14,317 nt of DNA, from IMG/VR virus record IMGVR_UViG_2648501130_000001, positions 1 to 14,317 of that record, one strand, 5' to 3'. The notes beneath the pieces were generated by a model. The model searched no databases and was not told the DNA's origin. It worked only from the letters and a program-made list of their open reading frames with translations. This stretch comes from a virus (lineage: Duplodnaviria; Heunggongvirae; Uroviricota; Caudoviricetes). Shown here one piece after another: positions 2,927-14,234 of the stretch (positions within the stretch are counted from its first letter, which is position 1; each line of letters opens with the position of its first letter). Both the position numbers and the translations under genes were made by a program.

Positions 2927-2966
2927 CATACCTTTTGATTTTGTAAAATCAATTCGTAATAATAAA

Positions 2967-2995
2967 GTCATCGGAGCTTGAACAACTCCGGTGAC
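2967..2995 (+). terminator. Stem-loop downstream of the lipoprotein operon (possible weak terminator)
   Basis: gtcatcggag (2967-2976) pairs with ctccggtgac (2986-2995) as a 10-bp stem with one G-U pair and a 9-nt loop. The following T tract is short (tt), so terminator activity is uncertain. Confidence 0.25.
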
Positions 2996-3116
2996 TTCTG
3001 CGCTAAACGGGGACGTTTATGCGCACATACAATCCAAACTCTCTTCTCCCTTCACAGATGCAGAAATGCACCTGCGATTTTTTGCATCCTGCGTTTGACC
3101 TCTGCGGAGGTGAAGC

Positions 3117-3572
3117 GTGAACCTACCACAAGATGGCATCAAATTACATCGCGGCAACTTCACCGCTATCGGCCAGCAGATCCAGCCTTATCTGGAGGAC
3201 GGAAAATGCTTTCGCATGGTGCTTAAACCGTGGCGTGAGAAACGCAGTCTTTCCCAGAATGCACTCAGCCACATGTGGTACAGCGAAATCAGTGAATACC
3301 TTATCAGCAGGGGGAAATCGTTCGCTACCGCAGCATGGGTAAAAGAAGCTCTCAAACACACATACCTCGGTTATGAAACCAAAGAACTGGTTGATGTCGT
3401 AACCGGTGAAATCACCACTATCCAGTCGTTACGCCATACCTCCGATCTTGATGCCGGAGAGATGTATGTCTTCCTGTGTAAGGTTGAAGCCTGGGCGATG
3501 AATATTGGCTGCCACCTGACTATTCCGCAGAGCTGCGAGTTCCAGCTGCTGCGCGACAAGCAGGAGGCGTAA
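3117..3572 (+). CDS. ybcN: YbcN-family protein (DLP12-type nin-region protein, reported DNA base-flipping protein)
   Basis: 151-aa ORF with GTG start, [58 protein letters not shown]..., closely matching my recollection of E. coli DLP12 YbcN (151 aa). GGAGG Shine-Dalgarno immediately upstream. Confidence 0.85.
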
Positions 3573-3742
3573 TGGCTACACCGCTTATTCGTGTCATGAA
3601 CGGACACATCTACAGAGTACCAAATCGTCGTAAGCGTAAACCTGAGCTGAAGCCATCCGAAATACCAACACTGCTCGGATATACCGCCAGCCTGGTTGAT
3701 AAAAAATGGTTGCGACTGGCAGCAAGGAGGAATCATGGCTGA
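3572..3742 (+). CDS. ninE: NinE-family small protein
   Basis: 56-aa ORF (below the ORF-track cutoff) found by manual translation: [59 protein letters not shown] overlaps the ybcN stop (TAATG); matches remembered NinE. Confidence 0.7.
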   Translation: MATPLIRVMNGHIYRVPNRRKRKPELKPSEIPTLLGYTASLVDKKWLRLAARRNHG

Positions 3743-4025
3743 TTTGAGAAAAGCAGCGCGTGGTCGGGAATGCCAGGTAAGAACCCCTGGCGTATGTAAT
3801 GGCAACCCTGAAACGTCTGTACTGGCACATATCCGGCTGACTGGATTGTGCGGCACCGGTACCAAACCGCCAGACCTGATTGCCACCATTGCATGTTCTG
3901 CCTGCCACGACGAAATCGACCGCCGCACACATTTTGTCGATGCCGCATATGCAAAAGAATGCGCGCTGGAAGGTATGGCGAGAACGCAGGTTATCTGGAT
4001 GAAAGAGGGGGTAATCAAGGCGTGA
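3735..4025 (+). CDS. ybcO: YbcO-family protein (DUF1364, Cys-rich putative metal-binding nuclease)
   Basis: The ORF track starts at 3696, but the internal ATG at 3735 gives a 96-aa protein ([64 protein letters not shown]...) matching remembered DLP12 YbcO. AAGGAGG Shine-Dalgarno at 3724-3730; start overlaps the ninE stop. Confidence 0.8.
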
Positions 4026-4384
4026 ATACCTACAACATCACATTACCCTGGCCTCCGAGCAATAATCGCTATTACCGCCATAATCGCGGGCGCACGCACG
4101 TCAGCGCAGAGGGGCAGGCATACCGCGATAACGTCGCCCGAATCATTAAAAACGCAATGCTGGATATCGGCCTGGCTATGCCTGTGAAAATCCGCATTGA
4201 GTGCCACATGCCGGATCGCCGTCGCCGTGACCTGGATAATCTGCAAAAAGCCGCTTTTGACGCACTCACTAAAGCAGGTTTCTGGCTGGATGATGCTCAG
4301 GTCGTTGATTACCGCGTTGTGAAGATGCCTGTTACCAAAGGTGGGAGGCTGGAACTGACCATCACCGAAATGGGGAATGAATGA
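4022..4384 (+). CDS. rusA: Holliday junction resolvase RusA
   Basis: GTG start at 4022 overlapping the ybcO stop. 120-aa product [47 protein letters not shown]...[11 protein letters not shown] matches remembered E. coli RusA nearly residue for residue. The longer ORF-track version (from 3848) is an in-frame upstream extension. Confidence 0.9.
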
Positions 4385-4521
4385 TGTTTGAGTTTTATAT
4401 GGCAGAACTTCTTCGCCACCGCTGGGGGCATCTGCGCTTATATCGTTTCCCCGGTTCTGTTTTGACCGATTACCGAATACTGAAGAATTACGCCAAAACC
4501 CTGACAGGAGCAGGAGTATGA
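4381..4521 (+). CDS. ylcG: YlcG-family small protein
   Basis: 46-aa ORF found manually ([46 protein letters not shown]), start overlapping the rusA stop. Matches remembered DLP12 YlcG in sequence and position. Confidence 0.55.
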
Positions 4522-4534
4522 AGTCAGAGATAAC

Positions 4535-4563
4535 AATCAACTAATACTGTTTTGTTGATTTTT
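4535..4563 (+). terminator. Weak AT-rich hairpin upstream of Q (possible tR-type terminator)
   Basis: aatcaac (4535-4541) pairs with gttgatt (4554-4560) as a 7-bp stem with a 12-nt loop, followed by ttt. Lambdoid phages carry terminators upstream of Q that N-type antitermination reads through. The stem is weak. Confidence 0.25.
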
Positions 4564-4606
4564 GCTTGTGATTGGCGTTCTGGTCTGATTTTTGTGGAGT
4601 AAGTTG

Positions 4607-4984
4607 ATGCGTGATATTCAGATGGTTCTTGAGCGTTGGGGAGCGTGGGCGGCTAATAATCATGAAGATGTGACTTGGTCGTCCATTGCCGCCGGTTTTA
4701 AGGGATTAATTCCTTCAAAAGTAAAATCTCGCCCGCAATGTTGTGACGATGATGCGATGATCATTTGCGGGTGCATGGCCCGTCTGAAAAAGAACAACAG
4801 CGATTTGCATGATTTATTGGTGGACTATTATGTCGGCGGCATGACTTTTATGGCGCTTGCACGTAAGCATGGGCGATCTGATTGTTGGGTTGGCAGGATG
4901 CTTCAGAAAGCTGAGGGCGTAGTGGAGGGTATGCTGATGGTGTTGGATCTCCGATTGGAGATGGATGCTGATTGTTCGAAATAA
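4607..4984 (+). CDS. quuD: Late-gene antiterminator Q (short QuuD-type Q family)
   Basis: The ORF track uses a TTG at 4592; the ATG at 4607 gives [76 protein letters not shown]..., matching my recollection of DLP12 QuuD (about 127 aa). It sits in the canonical Q position after the nin region and before a strong terminator. Confidence 0.8.
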
Positions 4985-5082
4985 TTAAAGGAAAAGTTGC
5001 TGTCTGATTGTCATTAGTCTAACATTTTAAATGTTGGAATCACAACGTAGTTATTATCATATAACAGCTTGTTTCCTGATTT
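4985..5082 (+). promoter_or_regulatory. Putative late promoter (pR'-like) and Q-utilisation region
   Basis: Positional inference only: in lambdoid phages pR' and qut lie directly downstream of Q and upstream of tR'. The AT-rich segment contains -10-like hexamers (tattat/tatcat at 5052-5060) and -35-like ttggaa (5034-5039), but spacing is not canonical and I cannot place the start site. Confidence 0.3.
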
Positions 5083-5111
5083 AGCCAGCCTCCCCAAAGG
5101 CTGGTTTTTTT
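5083..5111 (+). terminator. Rho-independent terminator (tR'-like) downstream of Q
   Basis: GC-rich hairpin: agccagcc (5083-5090), 8-nt loop tccccaaa, ggctggtt (5099-5106; last two pairs G-U/A-U), running into a 7-T tract (5105-5111). Classic intrinsic terminator geometry on the + strand. Confidence 0.65.
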
Positions 5112-5139
5112 CTAATAAGTATTATTTCGGGTAGGGATT

Positions 5140-5664
5140 TTATTGTTTAACCCATAATAATTCATTGACATTGAATCCCAACTTTTGAGCGGTTCGCACA
5201 TAGTCTGCTTTTACTTTATCTGGAATAGTTGGGGTCCTTGCCAGAATCCATAGGTATTCTCTGTTCGGACCACTGACAAGAGCATACTTATACTCATCAT
5301 CCAGTTTGATTACATTATAGCCACCATAGAAGGGGCCAAAAAACGAAACCTTCAATGCTGCAGTTTTAGTATCTCCAGTAAAGTATGCTTTACCTTCGCT
5401 CTCGCTCCATTTATTTTTCGTTGGATCGTATCCACGGTTAAGTACACGAATCCCTCCGTCGTTCCGTTTTCCATAAGTAGCGCTGACCTGTTCCAGACCA
5501 CGTTCGAACCGGTTCTCGAGGCGAGCTATTTCATACCATTTTCCGAGGTAGCGGTTGGCGTCAAAATTTGTAATCGGCTGCACACCTTTAGGTGGTGTCG
5601 GGGCCTTACATGCTATAAGAGTGAAAGAGAGTGCAATGCCAGTCAACACAGGCCATAACTTCAT
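5140..5664 (-). CDS. blc: Outer-membrane lipocalin (Blc family) lipoprotein
   Basis: 174-aa ORF with signal peptide and lipobox (TLIA-C at Cys19) and the lipocalin motif NFDANRYLGKWYEIARLENRFERGLE. Aligns along its length with remembered E. coli Blc but is clearly divergent, i.e. a paralogue rather than the chromosomal blc. Confidence 0.85.
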   Translation of the reverse strand: MKLWPVLTGIALSFTLIACKAPTPPKGVQPITNFDANRYLGKWYEIARLENRFERGLEQVSATYGKRNDGGIRVLNRGYDPTKNKWSESEGKAYFTGDTKTAALKVSFFGPFYGGYNVIKLDDEYKYALVSGPNREYLWILARTPTIPDKVKADYVRTAQKLGFNVNELLWVKQ

Positions 5665-5856
5665 AATAAATCCTGTACTTTTGATAGTTGAGAGTAAGTA
5701 TGAAAGATAGATGATTACGACCGATCACTTAAAGAACTTTCATACTATATTAGGAATAGTCCATAACAGAAAAATTGTCAGTGATGACGCCAGAAAGGCA
5801 ATTTATTCCGTGCACTACACAGTTTATGTGTTAATGAATTAGTCAAGGGGGAGAAT

Positions 5857-6816
5857 ATGATAAAAAAACCTGTGATTGGAATCAGCGGTTGTTTGGCCGG
5901 TTCTGCTGTTCGTTTTGATGGTGGTCACAAAAGAGCTGACTTTTTAATGGACAAATTAGTGGAATGGGTAACATTCAGACCAGTATGTCCGGAAATGGCT
6001 ATAGGGCTGCCAGTTCCGCGTCCTGCTCTACGTCTTGTGCGCTCGATGCAAGGAAATATACGGATGTGTTTCAGCCACGACCAGAATGAGGATGTGACAG
6101 AGAGAATGACAGAGTTTAGTCGTTCTTATATGGACAAATTAAAGGATGTATCGGGGTTTGTGGTTTGTGCTAAATCTCCCAGCTGTGGCATGGAGCGCGT
6201 GCGTGTCTATGATGAAAATGGTAATCGAGGTCGTAAAGATGGAGTGGGACTATTTACGAGCACTTTGATGGAAAAGTTTTCCTGGCTACCGGTTGAAGAG
6301 GATGGGCGATTACATGATCCAGTGCTTCGTGAGAATTTTGTTGAAAGAGTTTTTGCTTTGCATGAGCTCAATCACCTTTACAAGGAGAAATTATCAAGAA
6401 GAGAGTTATTAGCTTTTCATAGTCGTTATAAGCTTCAGTTGTTGGCGCATAGTCAGGCAGGCTATAAAGATATGGGACCATTTGTGGCTGCAATACACGA
6501 GTGGGCGGACCTTGAATCATACTTTGAGGTGTATCGTGATAAGCTGATGGCGATTCTCAGAAAACCTGCATCACGTAAAAATCACACGAATGTGCTGATG
6601 CATATACAGGGGTATTTTAGTAACTACTTAAGTACACGCCAGCGTAAAGAGTTGAGCGAGGTTATACTTAACTATCGTTCTGGCACATTACCTCTTCTTG
6701 CGCCGTTGACTCTGCTGAAGCATTATCTGGGTGAGTATCCTAATGATTACTTGCTTACACAAAATTACTTCGATCCCTATCCGGACGAACTGGCTCTAAG
6801 ACTGATGGTAAATTAA
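5857..6816 (+). CDS. DUF523/DUF1722 two-domain protein (YbgA-like; TudS-type Fe-S domain plus DUF1722)
   Basis: 319-aa ORF. N-terminus (KKPVIGISGCLAGSAVRFDGGHK...RPVCPEMAIGLPVPRP...CAKSPSCGMERV) has the conserved Cys pattern I associate with DUF523/TudS; the C-terminal half resembles the DUF1722 part of E. coli YbgA. GGGGAG Shine-Dalgarno upstream. Confidence 0.8.
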   Translation: MIKKPVIGISGCLAGSAVRFDGGHKRADFLMDKLVEWVTFRPVCPEMAIGLPVPRPALRLVRSMQGNIRMCFSHDQNEDVTERMTEFSRSYMDKLKDVSGFVVCAKSPSCGMERVRVYDENGNRGRKDGVGLFTSTLMEKFSWLPVEEDGRLHDPVLRENFVERVFALHELNHLYKEKLSRRELLAFHSRYKLQLLAHSQAGYKDMGPFVAAIHEWADLESYFEVYRDKLMAILRKPASRKNHTNVLMHIQGYFSNYLSTRQRKELSEVILNYRSGTLPLLAPLTLLKHYLGEYPNDYLLTQNYFDPYPDELALRLMVN

Positions 6817-7310
6817 TTGTATGCGATATCATCCAAAAGGATGAGTTCCTGCATGCAGGATATTTACAATCGTAAAAACTACACTATGATACCCAGAGTG
6901 TCAGTTTGTATAAAAACTCTGTTTACGCTGAAGAAACAATTGAGATGCAACTTAAAGTTGGTAAACATGCCAGTCAAAATATATGATATTATGATTCCAC
7001 GCAGCTATATATAATATAACAGATTGGTTTAATAATTTGTCTTTGTGAGTTAAATACATAATTTTATACTTGTGATGTAATGAAATTTTCCTTATTGTTG
7101 AACTGGCGAATATTGATTTTCCACCTACACTTACCTGGTGTAACCCCAATGATATCAGGTGGATAATATGCCATACATATGTTCTATCATTTTGGTGTTG
7201 AATTCGTTTGATGTCCGAATTGGTAAAGAAGATATTTTGTTTAAAAAAGGAAGTGCTGTTCTCATTGATTACAATTTAAAAGATTTTTTTCATCAAATAT
7301 AGATCATGTA

Positions 7311-7898
7311 ATGATCGTAGATGTTGAAGAAAAAACAGTTAATGATTTCTTTAAAAGCAACACACTCTCACCTTTTTCTGTAAGAAGGTTTTATCCGGCA
7401 TACTTGATGGTGGAATGTGAAGATTTTTCATTGTTAAAGAACTTGATTGCATGCTTGAATTGTGATGGCAGAACTGTGGATTTTGTTAGAAATCAAATAT
7501 CACTTGCATGTCTTGCTATCTTATCTTCAGAGAAAATAGTGCAAAGTTTTTTATTTGGATGTCTTAATAGTTTAGGAAGTAAAGTTAAGGCTATTATTCA
7601 CACGGATATATCTGCAGCATGGAGACTTTGTGATATATCTTCAAGACTGTATCTGAGTGAAAGTCTGTTAAAAAGAAAATTAAAGCACGAAGGCTTATCA
7701 TTTAGTAAGTTAATTCTTGAAGAGCGAATGGTGATGGCGGAAAGGTTATTAAGCTACAATTTATATTCTGTTGGAAAAGTTGCTGAGATATGCGGTTATG
7801 AAAACACGTCATATTTTGTAAGTGTTTTCAGAAGGTATTTTGGTGTTCCTCCCCATCAATATTCATCAAGATTTTTTTTAGAAAAAGACATGATGTAA
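7311..7898 (+). CDS. Short AraC/XylS-family transcriptional regulator (AppY/GadX-like HTH domain)
   Basis: 195-aa ORF with the C-terminal AraC-type double HTH signature (...VGKVAEICGYENTSYFVSVFRRYFGVPPHQY). An in-frame stop at 7266-7268 caps the N-terminus, so the sensing domain is only about 100 aa. Very AT-rich. Confidence 0.7.
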   Translation: MIVDVEEKTVNDFFKSNTLSPFSVRRFYPAYLMVECEDFSLLKNLIACLNCDGRTVDFVRNQISLACLAILSSEKIVQSFLFGCLNSLGSKVKAIIHTDISAAWRLCDISSRLYLSESLLKRKLKHEGLSFSKLILEERMVMAERLLSYNLYSVGKVAEICGYENTSYFVSVFRRYFGVPPHQYSSRFFLEKDMM

Positions 7899-8085
7899 CG
7901 TGATGCGTTTTAATGATTTTGTAATTTTCGTATTTGATAATTGTATGATGCTTTCAGCTACGCCAGAATAATCGCGGCGTTTTTCTTTTTGAATAGATGT
8001 TCAAGCCTTACGCTAATGTAACTTCTATACCTTTCCTCTTCGTTCCGAACCGTGTACACCATCCGTTATTTGCGGAGGTGAGGCT

Positions 8086-8301
8086 ATGAAATCCATGGAT
8101 AAGTTAACAACGGGCATTGCCTACGGCACCTCCGCAGGCAGTGCTGGCTACTGGTTTTTACAGCTGCTCGATAAAGTCACGCCCTCACAGTGGGCAGCAA
8201 TAGGTGTGCTGGGTAGCTTGGTATTTGGCCTGCTGACGTACCTGACAAACCTTTATTTCAAGATTAAAGAAGATAAGCGCAAGGCTGCGAGAGGTGAATA
8301 A
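8086..8301 (+). CDS. essD: Holin (class II / phage 21 S-type, pinholin-like)
   Basis: 71-aa [74 protein letters not shown] with two TM segments and a charged C-terminus. Matches remembered DLP12 EssD / phage 21 S holin; start of the lysis cassette. Confidence 0.85.
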
Positions 8302-8798
8302 TGCCTCCATCATTACGAAAAGCCGTTGCTGCTGCTATTGGTGGCGGAGCAATTGCTATAGCATCAGTGTTAATCACTGGCCCAAGTGGTAACGATGGTC
8401 TGGAAGGTGTCAGCTACATACCATACAAAGATATCGTTGGCGTATGGACTGTATGTCACGGGCATACAGGAAAAGACATCATTCCCGGTAAAACGTATAC
8501 CGAAGCAGAATGCAAAGCCCTCCTGAATAAAGACCTTGCCACGGTAGCCAGACAAATTAACCCGTACATCAAAGTCGATATACCGGAAACAACGCGCGGC
8601 GCTCTTTACTCGTTCGTCTATAACGTGGGCGCAGGCAATTTCAGAACATCCGCTCTTCTTCGCAAAATAAACCAGGGCGATATCAAGGGCGCATGTGACC
8701 AGCTACGTCGCTGGGCATACGCTGGCGGTAAGCAATGGAAAGGCCTGATGACTCGTCGTGAGATTGAGCGTGAGGTCTGTTTGTGGGGGCAACAATGA
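8301..8798 (+). CDS. rrrD: SAR endolysin (T4-lysozyme-type muramidase with N-terminal signal-anchor-release domain)
   Basis: 165-aa ORF starting at the holin stop (TAATG). Gly/Ala-rich weakly hydrophobic N-terminus ([20 protein letters not shown]) typical of SAR domains, followed by the E-8aa-D-5aa-T catalytic motif ([16 protein letters not shown]). Matches remembered RrrD / phage 21 R. Confidence 0.9.
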
Positions 8799-9262
8799 GC
8801 AGGGTAACCGCGATTATCTCCGCTCTGGTTATCTGCATCATCGTCTGCCTGTCATGGGCTGTTAATCATTACCGTGATAATGCAATCGCCTACAAAGAAC
8901 AGCGCGATAACAAGGCCAGTGAACTGGAGAAGGCGAACGCCACCATTACTGACATGCAGCAGCGCCAGCGTGATGCTGATGCACTCGATGATAAATACAC
9001 GAAGGAGTTAGCTGATGCGAAAGCTGAAAATGATGCTCTTCGGCGCAAGCTTGATAATGGTGGTCGGGTGCTCGTCAAAGGAAAATGCCCTGTGCCATCC
9101 TCAGCCGAAACCTCCAGCGCCTCCGGCATGGGCAATGATGCCACCGTCGAACTCTCTCCAGTTGCTGGACGAAACGTTCTCGGTATCCGGGACGGAATTA
9201 TCCGCGACCAAACAGCACTGAGAACGCTTCAGGAATACATCAGGACGCAATGCCTTCGATGA
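8795..9262 (+). CDS. rzpD: Spanin inner-membrane subunit Rz (i-spanin)
   Basis: Start taken at the ATG overlapping the endolysin stop (ATGA); the ORF track's 8783 start adds four residues. [38 protein letters not shown]... matches the lambda Rz N-terminus, with an N-terminal TM anchor and coiled-coil-like body. Confidence 0.85.
9015..9221 (+). CDS. rzoD: Spanin outer-membrane lipoprotein subunit Rz1 (o-spanin), embedded in Rz in the +1 frame
   Basis: 68-aa ORF wholly inside Rz in another frame: [19 protein letters not shown] (lipobox) followed by a Pro-rich segment ([17 protein letters not shown]), the hallmark of Rz1. Confidence 0.8.
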
Positions 9263-9436
9263 TAGCGATAATTTTACTCATCATCCTTCACATCTGGCTC
9301 TGTAGACAGGGTGGTGCTCACTTCTGGAGTGAATCCAGATTAAACATCTCATTGCTGATGCTTGATATTGAGCATTTTGCGCGCGGTAAGGGGCTGCGTT
9401 GAGATAAGAACCAGTCATTACAAATACCAGGATTTA

Positions 9437-9460
9437 GCCTCGCATTCGCGGGGCTTTTTA
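9437..9460 (+). terminator. Rho-independent terminator downstream of the lysis cassette
   Basis: gcctcgc (9437-9443), loop attc, gcggggc (9448-9454): a 7-bp GC-rich stem with one G-U pair, followed directly by ttttt (9455-9459). Confidence 0.5.
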
Positions 9461-9753
9461 TTGCCATTACAAAAGCCACTTCCTACAGAGTGGCTTTGAT
9501 AATGGTTTATACCCTACACGGGATAACTTAACTGATATCCCTTTTAAAGGATAAAGGTATTCAAGCCTGACACATCATGCGCTGTATCGTCGCCGTATTC
9601 CCGTATTAACAGAGACCGTAGCCCGACGGGGAACTCCTTCTGCGCGAGTGTGCGGGAATAATCAAAAACGATGCACACCGGGGTTACCGGGTACACATAT
9701 TTCATCATGCCAGCGAGTCCGGTTCTGGCACGGAAGAAACCGGACGTTATGAT

Positions 9754-10164
9754 TTAGTGCGGAAATATTTGTGTAGTGTTCTGAATGTTCTCAGTAAAGA
9801 GTAATGAATTATCAAAGGTATAGTAATACCTTTTGTTTTCGTGGATATTTGTAATCCATCTGAAAACCCCTGCTGTAGCAAGATTTTTCCTGTATTCGTA
9901 AAATGATAACTCTCCTGATTTGAATCCTTTTAAGGTGGCTTCTATAAGGCATTTATTTTTTGAAAATCTTACATTTACAACCTTACCCTGTCCTTTTATT
10001 AAAACCGTATTATCGTTTTCAAGAACAAGATGAATATTCTCTGTAGCTAAATAGTAAATGTAATGTGAGACATTGTGACGTTTTAGTTCAGAATAAAACC
10101 AGTGATAGTTTAAATTATTTCGCACTTTATCGAATATTTGTTTAAAAATGGCAACCTGAGCCAT
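9754..10164 (-). CDS. ybcV: YbcV-family protein (DUF1398)
   Basis: Minus-strand ORF; I prefer the start at 10164 ([45 protein letters not shown]...) because it matches remembered DLP12 YbcV (about 136 aa). The ORF-track start at 10179 adds MEGTT. Confidence 0.75.
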
Positions 10165-10220
10165 TGTAGTACCTTCCATGTGATATGAGGGGCGTAGTCT
10201 GCACGATTATCTAAATTGCT

Positions 10221-10454
10221 TCAATCTGGTCTGATCTGTTTTCTGAGCAATTCAGTAATGTCACTCTTTTCTTTGTTTGCTTCAGGAGAAACTCTTTTTT
10301 CTGAGCACAGTCTCCGGCGGCAGGCTTCAATGACCCAGGCTGAGAAATTCCCGGACCCTTTTTGATCAAGAGCGATGTTAATTTGTTCAATCATTTGGTT
10401 AGGAAAGCGGATGTTGCGGATTGTTGTTCTGCGGGTTCTGTTCTTCGTTGACAT
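10221..10454 (-). CDS. ylcI: YlcI-like small protein (DUF3950)
   Basis: 77-aa minus-strand ORF MSTKNRTRRTTIRNIRFPNQMIEQINIALDQKGSGNFSAWVIEACRRRL..., matching my recollection of DLP12 YlcI over about the first 50 residues. It lies in DNA that otherwise matches the right end of the lambda genome. Confidence 0.65.
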   Translation of the reverse strand: MSTKNRTRRTTIRNIRFPNQMIEQINIALDQKGSGNFSAWVIEACRRRLCSEKRVSPEANKEKSDITELLRKQIRPD

Positions 10455-10653
10455 GAGGTTGTCCCGTATTTAGTGTCGCTGATTTGTATTGTCTGAAGTT
10501 GTTTTTACGTTAAGTTGATGCAGATCAATTAATATGATACCTGCGTCATAATTGATTATTTGACGTGGTTTGATGGCGTAGATGCACGTTGTGACATGCA
10601 GATGATAATTATTATCATTTTGCGGGTCCTTTCCGGCGATCCGACAGGTTACG

Positions 10654-10665
10654 GGGCGGCGACCT
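10654..10665. other. cos site: cosN cohesive-end sequence GGGCGGCGACCT, with cosQ-side DNA upstream and cosB up to the Nu1 start
   Basis: ccgacaggttacg|GGGCGGCGACCT|ctcgggttttcgctatttatgaaaattttccggtttaagg reproduces the lambda right end, the 12-nt cohesive end and the left end as I remember them, with a few substitutions. The cosB inverted repeat (aggaaacgacag ... ctgtcgtttcct, about 10766-10825) is also present. Confidence 0.85.
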
Positions 10666-10842
10666 CTCGGGTTTTCGCTATTTATGAAAATTTTCCGGTT
10701 TAAGGCATTTCCGTTCTTCTTCGTCGTAACTTAATGTTTTTATTTAAAACACCCCCTGAAAAGAAAGGAAACGACAGGTGCTGAAAACGGGCTTTTTGGC
10801 CTCTGTCGTTTCCTTTCTCTGTTTTTGTCCGTGGAATGAACA

Positions 10843-11403
10843 ATGGAAGTCAACAAAAAGCAGCTGGCTGACATTTTCGGCGCGAGTATCCGTACCATTC
10901 AGAACTGGCAGGAGCAGGGAATGCCCGTTCTGCGGGGTGGTGGGAAGGGTAATGAGGTGCTTTATGATTCTGCCGCCGTCATAAAATGGTATGCCGAAAG
11001 GGATGCTGAAATTGAGAACGAAAAGCTGCGCCGGGAAGTTGAAGAACTGCGGCAGGCCAGCGAGACAGATCTCCAGCCAGGGACTATTGAGTACGAACGC
11101 CATCGACTTACGCGTGCGCAGGCCGACGCACAGGAGCTGAAAAATGCCAGAGACTCCGCTGAAGTGGTGGAAACCGCATTCTGTACTTTCGTGCTGTCGC
11201 GGATCGCAGGTGAAATTGCCAGTATTCTCGACGGGATCCCCCTGTCGGTGCAGCGGCGTTTTCCGGAACTGGAAAACCGACATGTTGATTTCCTGAAACG
11301 GGATATCATCAAAGCCATGAACAAAGCAGCCGCGCTGGATGAACTGATAAAGCGCAGGCGCTCACTATCAACAAGGATGAGGTTAACTCAACAGTTGATT
11401 TAA
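10843..11403 (+). CDS. nohD: Terminase small subunit Nu1, C-terminally truncated at a deletion junction (NohD-like)
   Basis: MEVNKKQLADIFGASIRTIQNWQEQGMPVLRGGGKGNEVLYDSAAVIKWYAERD...KAMNKAAALDELI matches lambda Nu1 up to about residue 169; the final 17 residues (KRRRSLSTRMRLTQQLI) are unrelated, so lambda homology breaks near base 11349. No terminase large subunit gene follows. Confidence 0.85.
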   Translation: MEVNKKQLADIFGASIRTIQNWQEQGMPVLRGGGKGNEVLYDSAAVIKWYAERDAEIENEKLRREVEELRQASETDLQPGTIEYERHRLTRAQADAQELKNARDSAEVVETAFCTFVLSRIAGEIASILDGIPLSVQRRFPELENRHVDFLKRDIIKAMNKAAALDELIKRRRSLSTRMRLTQQLI

Positions 11404-12056
11404 CCCTTACAAAACAATCAGGGACTGGCAATCGTTTTGTTTTACAGAACTCAGGTAATGCAGAACTACCGTTTTCTGTCAGGGTGTGGGGTTCCAGTAC
11501 TCGACAAAACGTTTTTGAGGTTGGAACGTCTGCTGCGTATCTGTTTTATGCGCAAAAAACGTCAGCAGGCCAGTTGTTTGATGTAAATGGCGCTATTAAT
11601 TGCACAACGCTGAATCAGTCATCAGACCGCGACCTTAAAGACGATATTCTCGTTATCAGCGACGCGACGAAAGCAATCCGTAAAATGAACGGGTACACCT
11701 ACACGCTCAAGGAAAACGGAATGCCTTATGCTGGCGTTATTGCACAGGAAGTAATGGAGGCGATACCTGAAGCTGTGGGATCGTTTACTCATTATGGTGA
11801 AGAGTTGCAAGGTCCGACCGTTGACGGCAACGAGCTACGCGAAGAAACTCGCTATCTTAATGTTGACTACTCCGCCGTGACGGGGTTACTTGTTCAGGTC
11901 GCCCGTGAAACAGATGATCGCGTTACCGCGCTGGAAGAGGAAAATACAACGTTACGTGAAAATCTGGCAACAGCAGGCACCCGGATCACCACTCTGGAAA
12001 ATCAGGTAAGCGAACTGGTTGCACTTGTCGGGCAGTTAACAGGAAGCGAACATTGA
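11343..12056 (+). pseudogene. Tail-fibre C-terminal fragment with intramolecular-chaperone (peptidase S74-like) domain; no 5' part or start context
   Basis: Frame 0 is open from the stop at 11340-11342 to the TGA at 12054-12056. The translation contains the autoproteolytic chaperone signature as I recall it (LNQSSDRDLKDDILVISDATKAIRKMNGYTYTLKENGMPYAGVIAQEVMEAIPEAV), preceded by fibre-like sequence. The ORF-track version starts at a GTG (11484). Confidence 0.6.
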
Positions 12057-12293: not shown

Positions 12294-12962
12294 CTATTTT
12301 TTCCCTGAAGCGGAAAACATTACTACAGTACCTTGAACCTTGGTTTTAACATTCTCGAAATGCTCTGAGAGTATATGTGTTAAGCCTTCTTCGGAATCTT
12401 TTGTGTTTGAAAAGATGCCTTTCTGATTGTAAATGCGCATCAGTTTTTGACCGAAGCTATTGTGCACAACTCCATCGCCAAGAATTGTGGCTCCGTATAG
12501 AGTTCCATCGTCAGTTAAGGCCTGCGCCGCATTGCGTATTACACAGCTTTTTGTAGATATATTTCCAGGCAGGCAGTGAAGAAGGTAAAACATGGAAATG
12601 GAATCAAATTGACCATGTAACGCCGCGGGATAAGGTTCAAAAACATCATGGCTAATTTTATGTTTAATTTTTGATTCCCCAGCCCTTGTAGATGCCGCGT
12701 TCAGGCTAGCTTCGTTCAAATCCATTAAAGATATCAGACTACTCTCAGGTACGTGAGTAAGGTAAAACCCAGTTCCAACACCAATATCCAGATGGTTGTT
12801 ACCTAAATGTTCCAGAAAGTGTGGAAGAAGGTGTTCCTTTGTAGGACATCCCCATGCAAGCCGATTTGATACTCCCAAAACCCACCAGTCATAAAGCTTT
12901 AGGGTAAGTGGTGTGTAAATTTTAGCCCCATCATCTGTGTTTTTTTTCATTAATTTCACCAT
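12294..12962 (-). CDS. ybcY: Class I SAM-dependent methyltransferase (YbcY-like), apparently intact
   Basis: 222-aa minus-strand ORF with Rossmann-fold methyltransferase motif I (HLDIGVGTGFYL). Resembles the DLP12 ybcY product, which I recall as a disrupted gene in E. coli K-12; here the frame is open throughout. Alternative start at 12950 (MKKNT...). Confidence 0.75.
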   Translation of the reverse strand: MVKLMKKNTDDGAKIYTPLTLKLYDWWVLGVSNRLAWGCPTKEHLLPHFLEHLGNNHLDIGVGTGFYLTHVPESSLISLMDLNEASLNAASTRAGESKIKHKISHDVFEPYPAALHGQFDSISMFYLLHCLPGNISTKSCVIRNAAQALTDDGTLYGATILGDGVVHNSFGQKLMRIYNQKGIFSNTKDSEEGLTHILSEHFENVKTKVQGTVVMFSASGKK

Positions 12963-13105
12963 GTTATAGTTTTGTTTGTGAATTAAATCAATTATGGTGA
13001 TGAATTACAAGGGGTTAAATGCTGCCGCAGCATAGCGATATTGAAATAGCCTGGTATGCTTCGATACAGCAGGAGCCGAATGGCTGGAAGACCGTCACCA
13101 CATAG

Positions 13106-13288
13106 TTCTACATCCAGGAATTCAGTGAGCATATTGCGCCACTTCAGGATGCTGTAGATCTGGAGATCGCAACGGAGGAAGAAAACTCGTTGCTGGAAGC
13201 CTGGAAGAAGTATCGGGTGTTGCTGAACCGTGTTAATACAACAACTGCACCGGATATTGAATGGCCAACAGTACCCATTATCGAATAG
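13106..13288 (+). pseudogene. Tail-fibre assembly protein (Tfa) C-terminal remnant (tfaX-like)
   Basis: After an in-frame TAG at 13103-13105 the frame reads [60 protein letters not shown] with no Met, a typical Tfa C-terminus. A short upstream ORF (ATG at 13019, 28 aa) may be a further fragment of the same degraded gene. Confidence 0.6.
13160..13288 (+). repeat. Direct repeat copy B (tfa 3' end); partner at 12111-12239
   Basis: See copy A. Same orientation, with the methyltransferase gene between the copies on the opposite strand. Confidence 0.8.
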
Positions 13289-13361: not shown

Positions 13362-14234
13362 TTATTTTGAGTGAATTATCACCTTGTTTTTTCCGGTTCT
13401 TTTGGCTTGATATAACGCTTTATCGGCATTGACTAACATTTCAGATGGGCTGAGATTATTCTCTTTTGAAGTAAAGCAACCAATACTGACAGTTATTTTC
13501 TCAGGTCCATGCGATAATAATTTTTCCGAGCATTGCTCTTCAATGTTTTTTCTGATTCGCTCTGCAATTGATAGCAAGAGCTTTTGAGTATTACCTTTAA
13601 TGATAATACCGAACTCCTCACCGCCTAAGCGCCCTAATACATCCTCTTTCCTGATGGATTTTTTTATTATTCTGGTAACCATTACTATGACTTGATCACC
13701 CATATGATGCCCCCATTTGTCATTGATGCTTTTGAAACTGTCAATATCTAACATTATTACTGAGAAATCATGGTGTTTTGATATATTCTTCAATGAGTCA
13801 ATAAAGTATCTTCTATTGTATGTATTCGTTAGTGGATCATGAATTGCCATATGATTAGCATGATTTAATTTCCTGAAAACATAATACATGAGTGTTGAAA
13901 TGATATAAATCATTGATATCAATTCAAGAAATTTTGTCATATACCATGCAGGATGGGATTTATCAATAAAATACAATAAAATTAGATTATTGCATACTGA
14001 CACTATACTAATAAGTATTATACACAACCATATTTTTGAGTAATTACGTATGCTGATGCATGAGCTGATAAGTAATACAAGCCAAAATACTGATATTATT
14101 TTGGTGTACACGATATTCCACGTCGGCAAATGACGATTCAGCGAGTATTGTATAATATTAAGACTATATTTTATATTGTCACTGCTTAGATTTTTTGCTA
14201 CAAACGGAGTAATAAAAAGAATTAATATTGACAA
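13362..14234 (-). CDS. Membrane-anchored GGDEF-domain diguanylate cyclase (intact GGEEF active site and RxxD I-site)
   Basis: 290-aa minus-strand ORF with an N-terminal half of several hydrophobic helices and a C-terminal GGDEF domain (HDPLTNTYNRRYF...IMLDIDSFKSINDKWGHHMGD...IRKEDVLGRLGGEEFGIII): RKED lies five residues before GGEEF. Strongly AT-rich. The true N-terminus may lie upstream of the annotated Met. Confidence 0.85.
   Translation of the reverse strand: MSILILFITPFVAKNLSSDNIKYSLNIIQYSLNRHLPTWNIVYTKIISVFWLVLLISSCISIRNYSKIWLCIILISIVSVCNNLILLYFIDKSHPAWYMTKFLELISMIYIISTLMYYVFRKLNHANHMAIHDPLTNTYNRRYFIDSLKNISKHHDFSVIMLDIDSFKSINDKWGHHMGDQVIVMVTRIIKKSIRKEDVLGRLGGEEFGIIIKGNTQKLLLSIAERIRKNIEEQCSEKLLSHGPEKITVSIGCFTSKENNLSPSEMLVNADKALYQAKRTGKNKVIIHSK

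Follow-up and report, generated by a model that had tools for sequence, protein, structure and literature searches.

What is left of a packaging system when the site at which packaging begins is kept and the machinery that acts on it is gone? The question is raised by a locus in a Caudoviricetes record (IMGVR_UViG_2648501130_000001), of which the first 14,317 nucleotides, hereafter the window, were analysed. A first-pass annotation of the letters had proposed that an intact lambda-type cos site and the DNA-binding region of the small terminase subunit Nu1 were retained next to a deletion of the structural module, and that a helper phage might package the DNA in trans. In our reading, the region is probably what one deletion left of a lambda-like prophage at att-lambda: its packaging-initiation end, now passive in a defective element.

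The locus is a defective lambda-like prophage at att-lambda

The window matches E. coli chromosomes such as that of strain WCHEC020031 at 100% identity, and it occupies positions 562-14878 of the host locus (L001). Two att cores (GCTTTTTTATACTAA), 25.36 kb apart, lie between ybhC and ybhB-bioA. This is att-lambda, where lambda classically integrates next to bioA, and the whole locus is a defective lambda-like prophage of 25.4 kb. From the left, the prophage carries int, xis, exo, bet, gam, kil, a repressor with an S24-peptidase domain, cro, O, P, ren and the nin genes; to the right these are followed by Q, three cargo genes, S, R, Rz, a DUF1398 gene, ylcI, cos, the truncated small-terminase gene (Nu1') and a fragment of a side-tail-fibre gene (stf'). 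After stf', the element ends with tfa fragments, a SAM methyltransferase gene (window 12294-12962), a diguanylate cyclase gene and attR. Int, xis, exo, bet, gam, the repressor, cro, O, P, Q, S, R and Rz are annotated as intact.

Neither the window nor the host locus contains terminase A, portal, capsid or head, or tail genes (A through J are absent). The loss of the structural module that the first-pass annotation had noticed, tail shaft genes included, is thereby borne out, and with it the statement that the element cannot package itself, since the deletion removed that module. A lambdoid gene order between att sites with the morphogenetic genes missing makes the element a cryptic (defective) lambdoid prophage.

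A second gap lies in the early region. No N-like open reading frame was found in the ~500 bp between the genes at the rex position and kil, and the whole N-cIII segment is apparently missing; at the equivalent place the prophage of strain MS15047 has N, sieB, ral, ea10 and cIII. With gene N missing, the element's own early and late expression may be crippled, and its replication is perhaps weak.

Two relatives without the deletion served for comparison. A sibling prophage in strain RMDEC332 (L032), 99.1% identical to window positions 2930-11349, runs past Nu1 into A, W, B, C, D, E and onwards to H. Strain MS15047 has, in the same att site, a complete-looking lambda-like prophage of 60-odd genes, every morphogenetic gene included, annotated as intact.

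The cos region keeps the lambda layout

Window positions 10440-11349 are 96% identical to phage lambda in a pairwise alignment, and about 100 lambda-like phage records match the same segment at 96-98% identity (E = 0). All of these matches stop at 11349. With window position 10654 as lambda bp 1 (pairwise alignment and coordinate transfer), the subsites of cos could be placed (Table 1).

Table 1. Coordinates of the features around cos and the deletion junction (window positions)
Feature	Position	Strand	Remarks
cosQ, packaging termination signal	10624-10630	+	GGGTCCT; lambda bp 48473-48479
cosN, nicking site	10652-10667	+	12-bp cohesive end with 2 bp on each side
cosB R3, critical TerS binding site	10703-10718	+	lambda bp 50-65; G54A at 10707
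R3-R2 interval with IHF site I1	10719-10761	+	bp 73, 97 and 102 changed relative to lambda
cosB R2	10762-10777	-	inverted copy of the 16-bp TerS site CTGTCGTTTCCTTTCT; identical to lambda
cosB R1	10803-10818	+	CTGTCGTTTCCTTTCT; identical to lambda
Nu1' (RefSeq "nohD: DNA-packaging protein")	10843-11403	+	186 aa: 169 lambda-type codons and 17 out-of-frame stf codons
Deletion junction	11349-11350		lambda homology ends at 11349; tail-fibre homology begins at 11345-11350
stf', promoterless side-tail-fibre C-terminal fragment	11349-12056	+	last ~235-236 codons; frame differs from that of Nu1'

The elements that had been noted as present, namely cosN, the flanking cosQ- and cosB-like sequence and roughly 169 codons of Nu1 (1-169), could all be located, cosB extending over 10703-10818. 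The cosQ heptamer is the same as in lambda and in all 11 of the aligned phages, and it stands at the lambda distance from the downstream cosN. For cosN we used the definition of 12 bp and 2 flanking bp on each side (Murialdo and Feiss, PMC9026076); the cohesive end, GGGCGGCGACCT, at 10654-10665 shows no difference from lambda. The complex cosB (R3, I1, inverted R2 and R1, with I1 between R3 and R2 as described in PMC4669245 and PMC9026076) is present at the lambda spacing from cosN. There are zero indels relative to lambda in the alignment from cosQ to Nu1, and every spacing in this interval is therefore that of lambda. An Rfam scan of the window gave no match in the cos region.

Relative to lambda, five substitutions lie upstream of cosQ (bp -59, -55, -44, -36 and -32), one in the gap between cosQ and cosN (bp -17), one in cosN (bp 14), one in R3 (bp 54), three in the I1 interval (Table 1) and two between R2 and R1 (bp 134 and 137). 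A 12-way alignment with sequenced phages shows that, from bp -17 through bp 137, all changes but that at bp 14 have a counterpart in one or more phages.

An illegitimate junction between Nu1 and a side-tail-fibre gene

Nu1' starts at lambda bp 190/191 and matches the Pfam family Phage_Nu1 (PF07471) over profile positions 1-164 of 164 (E = 4e-101). Its residues 1-169 are identical to lambda Nu1 at 167 of 169 positions, the two changes, A75T and L132I, being conservative. Residues 1-74 are the same as in lambda and include the DNA-binding domain (aa 1-68, the N-terminal winged helix, with the recognition helix of lambda), and the packaging specificity is thus that of lambda. Going by its sequence, Nu1' keeps both the winged-helix DNA-binding domain and the central self-association region.

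The last 12 residues of lambda Nu1 (170-181) are gone, with 17 unrelated residues up to the stop codon in their place, which makes the product a truncated Nu1 and not a functional small subunit. The C-terminal ~40 residues of TerS have been proposed to bind TerL (PMC9026076); Nu1' has lost 12 of these, and its C-terminal gpA-binding segment is incomplete. The stf frame differs from the Nu1 frame, and the 17-residue tail is therefore accidental read-through.

As first noticed, lambda homology gives way near 11349 to the C-terminal part of a tail-fibre gene, and the alignment of the window to lambda ends at exactly that position. At the DNA level, stf' shares 93-95% identity with the stf genes of phages Ayreon and mEp460, in their 3' part. 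Its translation aligns to the C-terminus of the Ayreon Stf and contains a Peptidase_S74 chaperone domain (Pfam), and RefSeq annotates it as a tail-fibre pseudogene. In a MAFFT alignment with the Ayreon stf, at most a few bp are common to both sides of the junction, a figure given as an upper bound because Ayreon, at ~93% identity, stands in for the parental stf. With so little shared at the joint, the join is illegitimate and not homologous.

The arrangement would be explained by a single illegitimate deletion running from Nu1 codon 169/170 into the side-tail-fibre gene. Such an event would have taken the C-terminal 12 residues of Nu1, then A, W, B, C, Nu3, D, E, FI and FII, and further Z through J, lom and most of stf. 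Its length of ~21-22 kb, obtained against the complete-looking MS15047 prophage, is an estimate, taken in L036 as the distance between codon 169 of Nu1 and a point 708 nt short of the stf end, because the stf C-terminus of MS15047 is of another type and cannot be aligned with window positions 11350-12056.

Of 5,426 complete E. coli genomes, 189 carry this junction, as does a single IMG/VR contig (L024). All junction-bearing copies listed show 100% identity; in one of them the flanking sequence was read, and that copy sits at att-lambda. Deletions in other prophages end elsewhere: at Nu1 aa 78 in two loci (L016 and L017) and within A in the K-12 prophage DLP12.

Two changed positions in cos and their context

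The first-pass annotation had called cos intact. This holds for cosQ, the cohesive end, R2 and R1, which are identical to lambda, but cosN carries G14T and R3 carries G54A. It had also foreseen that careful alignment might bring out disabling mutations in cos; these two changes came out, and the same allele is found in the complete-looking MS15047 prophage.

G14T is the single mildly unexpected detail of the locus, a conserved base pair that is changed and yet widespread, complete-looking prophages included. It makes the right flank of cosN CT and not CG (window 10667), the left flank being the same as in lambda. The 5'-CG-3' pairs flanking the nicks are highly conserved and under selection (Feiss and colleagues, PMC4669245), and bp 13-14 is one of the two, the one that flanks the bottom-strand nick (PMC4669245, PMC9026076). 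The change would bear on what is known of the sequence that lambda terminase needs for nicking the bottom strand. As to the second change, G54 is the G of the CGTTTCC core that R1, R2 and R3 have in common.

It could be argued from these positions that cos is dead, with G14T, alone or together with G54A, disabling nicking or terminase assembly and leaving an inert fossil that helpers could not use. T14 was absent from all 68 sequenced phage records covering the segment (50,697 phage records searched), and the few phage matches with at least 99% identity are partial alignments that appear to stop short of bp 14. Many of the prophages with T14 also carry other inactivating lesions: an IS66 in A (L014), a portal pseudogene (L034), or a stop in Nu1 together with an IS621 in a capsid gene (the RMDEC332 sibling). 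Since T14 is absent from phage records with full coverage, functional evidence had to come from the context of prophages.

That context speaks against a dead site, which we regard as unlikely. The cos of the MS15047 prophage, annotated as intact for all morphogenetic genes, shows 0 differences from the window over bp -43 to +189, T14 and A54 included, and that of the RMDEC332 sibling shows 0 differences over bp -60 to +189. The T14-bearing 60-mer is found without mismatch in 265 E. coli chromosome records, ~76 more than have the deletion. Fifteen IMG/VR contigs, which represent several SNP backgrounds, carry T14 too, and full-length Nu1, A, B, C, E and H occur among them. In three of them (L020, L021 and L029) Nu1, A and the portal gene are full-length, with L020 running on through H, and in two others (L022 and L026) Nu1 and A are full-length in the available sequence. 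A second, different prophage context, in strain 120899, has T14 as well. Such a spread over backgrounds and contexts would be hard to explain if the allele were non-transmissible. The anchoring of bottom-strand nicking has also been ascribed to TerS bound at cosB (PMC4669245), which speaks against a lesion as well.

TerS contacts R3 at bp 55-63, with bp 56, 58 and 59 as the sensitive positions (PMC9026076), which places bp 54 just outside the contacts and not among the sensitive positions; A54 is also found in the sequenced phage PhiR42_1 (12-way alignment). With an identical allele in the apparently complete MS15047 prophage, this is most likely a natural working variant, and from context we hold it probable that the cos of the window is a natural, functional allele.

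Prospects for packaging by a helper

With no large terminase and no proheads, the region of cos and Nu1' does nothing alone. If a phage of lambda specificity were active in the same cell, its terminase would be expected to assemble on cosB, TerS on R3, R2 and R1 and IHF on I1; TerL would then nick cosN, the DNA being packaged rightwards from cos, towards Nu1'. The sequence requirements for packaging in trans appear to be in place, to judge from the identity to lambda of cosQ, the cohesive end, R2, R1 and the DNA-binding domain of Nu1, and packaging of the element by a helper is, by analogy, plausible in principle.

Completion of packaging is another matter. Termination requires a second cosQ-cosN in the same orientation. 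None was found within 57 kb of chromosome downstream, where cos is single and ordinary host genes follow (bio, uvrB, moa, dinG, fiu, gln, dps and ompX). A degenerate search gave one candidate second cos, a 12-mer ~16 kb downstream in moaC, which was rejected; it has no cosQ context, and ~0.2 such matches are expected by chance. Without a terminating second cos, initiation in situ would yield unterminated, non-infectious particles. Sternberg and Weisberg are said to have described doc particles.

Productive transduction would thus take a longer route. The 25.4 kb element would have to excise through its own Int and Xis, replicate to concatemers through O and P, and be packaged as a dimer of ~50.7 kb. 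According to Feiss and colleagues, packaged chromosomes must reportedly measure roughly 78-105% of 48.5 kb. The monomer, at 52% of lambda, is below the lower packaging limit, and the dimer, at 104.6%, is right at the upper one.

Could the element be a helper-dependent mobile element all the same, excising, replicating and being packaged as the 50.7 kb dimer by a phage of lambda specificity, with Nu1' perhaps modulating or competing with the helper terminase, loosely like the Rpp protein of phage-inducible chromosomal islands (PICIs)? We consider this quite improbable. The version that goes further, in which the element behaves like a satellite that is regularly moved in the capsids of lambda-type helpers and whose cos is kept by selection, we judge very improbable. 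It can draw on the complete cos, on excision, recombination, replication and lysis modules that are annotated as intact (the missing N-cIII segment excepted), on a double length that just fits the lambda head, and on an abundance of helpers, 3,261 of the 5,426 E. coli genomes carrying lambda-type cos-Nu1-A modules, a frequency at the level of the species. Against it, the hallmarks of satellites are missing: the protein next to cos is lambda Nu1 and not Rpp, and cosB is the helper's own. Gene N is missing too. The identity of the listed junction copies, with one read at att-lambda, fits vertical inheritance in one lineage, and the absence of private substitutions in cos relative to complete relatives means that a recent deletion explains its conservation without selection.

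That Nu1' serves as a defence, poisoning an incoming lambda-type terminase or occupying cosB, is scarcely credible: a parallel exists in the PICI protein Rpp, which is TerS-like, has no TerL-binding domain and blocks helper packaging (PMC9026076), and Nu1' does keep residues 1-169 with part of the proposed TerL-binding segment lost, but the Nu1' gene is part of the late operon, behind Q, S and R, where the annotation hints at no expression in the lysogen, its fusion tail is an accidental out-of-frame read, and the differing end points of other deletions (in L016, L017 and DLP12) speak for random breakpoints.

We therefore return to the passive end of a defective prophage, and for such an element two outcomes are more likely than mobilization: incoming lambdoid phages may pick up its cos, Nu1 and lysis DNA through homologous recombination, or nothing happens. 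Recombination of a segment that is 96-98% identical to lambdoid phages would, by analogy with DLP12 (PMC3945230), be at least as likely as packaging. The suggestion that a co-resident helper could package this DNA in trans hence stands as far as the sequence requirements of cos and the precedents of the prophages Sp4 and DLP12 go; its likening to cosmids and satellites was overstated for an element with one cos, a conserved base pair of cosN changed by G14T, a length of 25.4 kb, apparently no gene N and no satellite functions.

Comparison with known systems

Cosmids and the passive prophages used by Feiss and colleagues (PMC4669245) resemble the element in that a lambda cos is the sole packaging function and terminase is supplied in trans. 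Their assays, however, offer terminase two cos sites in the same orientation 38-51 kb apart (in concatemers, tandem dilysogens or ligation products), whereas the element has one cos in a unit of 25.4 kb.

The cos-type PICIs, of which EcCICFT073 is an example (PMC6739421, PMC9026076), are likewise chromosomal and without capsid genes, with a lambda-like cosQ and cosN beside a TerS-like gene, and a lambda-like helper has to supply their terminase and capsids. PICIs do not have the phage cosB; Rpp retargets the helper TerS to a PICI-specific R3 and blocks packaging of the helper (PMC9026076). The element, by contrast, has neither Rpp nor a private R3, and both its cosB and the protein next to cos are lambda's own. 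It is a 25 kb prophage with the lambda early and lysis genes, not an island. On these features of the DNA, the element does not class as a satellite or a cos-type PICI.

Sp4 is a defective lambdoid prophage of E. coli O157:H7 Sakai. Its packaged DNA was measured, and the packaging was attributed, probably, to the terminase of Sp14, for which Sp4 offers an identical cos (Asadulghani et al. 2009, PMC2669165). Sp4 and the element are alike in having no working terminase and a cos identical to that of a complete relative. They differ in that Sp4 lost Nu1 to an IS insertion and its packaging was measured, whereas the element lost the whole structural module and is known from its sequence.

In kind, the element stands closest to the cos-nohD remnant of DLP12 in E. 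coli K-12, whose cos-region genes (cos/nohD) function once recombined into lambda (PMC3945230). DLP12 has the same order of lysis cassette, DUF1398 gene, ylcI, cos and Nu1 homologue, and there too an internal deletion leads into fragments of tail-fibre and tail-fibre-assembly genes, followed by a SAM methyltransferase gene. The name nohD in RefSeq might suggest that the element is DLP12 itself; this is ruled out by the attachment site, the breakpoints and the cos allele. The element sits at att-lambda beside bioA and DLP12 beside appY. In the element, Nu1 passes into stf at codon 169, whereas K-12 has a complete nohD of 181 aa and a fragment A' that passes into tfa'. The cos of DLP12 has G14 and G54 and differs from that of the element at 11 positions across bp -60 to +189. 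Unlike the DLP12 remnant, the element still has int, xis, the red genes, the repressor, O and P. The Qin prophage of K-12 is presumably a similar cryptic prophage.

The element is thus of a well-known kind, a common E. coli prophage remnant that is already understood and whose pieces are annotated in RefSeq. Its significance is mostly one of annotation: it adds one more lambdoid prophage decayed by internal deletion, with cos and part of the small-terminase gene kept. Related phages can take up DNA from such remnants by recombination and, now and then, carry them along as passengers; both roles are documented for DLP12 and the prophage pool of O157 Sakai.

Decay among prophages with the G14T cosN allele

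The cosN of the window carries a G-to-T change at lambda bp 14 (G14T), which alters the conserved CG adjoining the bottom-strand nick. The same allele (T14) occurs in E. coli chromosomes (265 records) and in IMG/VR (15 contigs), with complete-looking prophages among them, but is absent from all 68 sequenced phage records whose sequence covers this segment. Since the inactivating lesions differ among three T14-cos relatives, namely L014, L032 (the undeleted sibling prophage of strain RMDEC332) and L034, the group shows repeated and independent decay.

Coordinates of annotated features in the window and in T14-cos relatives
Feature	Location	Strand	Remark
Lipocalin-family protein	window 5140-5664	-	cargo
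YbgA-family protein	window 5857-6816	+	cargo
Helix-turn-helix gene	window 7168-7898	+	cargo; frameshifted
G14T cosN	window 10667; L020, L032, L033/L036, L034		
Class I SAM-dependent methyltransferase	window 12294-12962	-	flanked by tfa fragments
Sensor diguanylate cyclase	window 13362-14234	-	prophage right end, immediately inside attR
IS66 inside terminase A	L014 6726-11358		T14-cos relative
Internal stop in Nu1 and IS621 in major capsid gene	L032 12233-12778 and 18177-20481		T14-cos relative
Truncated portal gene	L034 3178-3299		T14-cos relative

Left arm of the element

The left arm of the same prophage lies outside the window, on host chromosome stretch L030. Beside the repressor (L030 2738-4311), the position that rexA and rexB occupy in lambda is taken by two genes, one for a HipA-family kinase and one for a DUF3037 protein; this pair may constitute a prophage-borne toxin or defence module. 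The approximately 500 bp separating these genes from kil (L030 4311-4820) contain no N-like ORF, whereas the complete-looking prophage of strain MS15047 carries N, sieB, ral, ea10 and cIII at that position. A second deletion in the element therefore seems to have taken out the N antiterminator.

Cargo and right-end genes

Three cargo genes (window 5140-7898) separate the gene for the Q antiterminator from the lysis cassette, and the same insert is found in the sibling prophage L032. Towards the right end, the methyltransferase gene is shared with phages 2G7b and ev243 and, in a frameshifted form, with the cryptic prophage DLP12 of K-12. The sole Rfam match in the window, to the E. coli intergenic small-RNA family IS009 (13042-13245, plus strand; score 129.9 bits, gathering threshold 117), sits amid tail-fibre-assembly remnants.

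Other deletions that retain cos and the Nu1 N-terminus

In two IMG/VR contigs, L016 and L017, other T14-cos prophages carry an independent deletion. The resulting 477-aa ORF, on the downstream side of cos (190-1623 nt from its bp 1), fuses Nu1 residues 1-78 in frame with some 400 residues from a tail fibre resembling lambda Stf. The cos site and the Nu1 N-terminus were thus kept by three different deletions (L016/L017, K-12 DLP12 and the window), in a sample biased towards cos-retaining elements, as the L016 and L017 contigs were retrieved by a cosN-sequence search. In K-12 DLP12, the deletion joins A' to tfa'.
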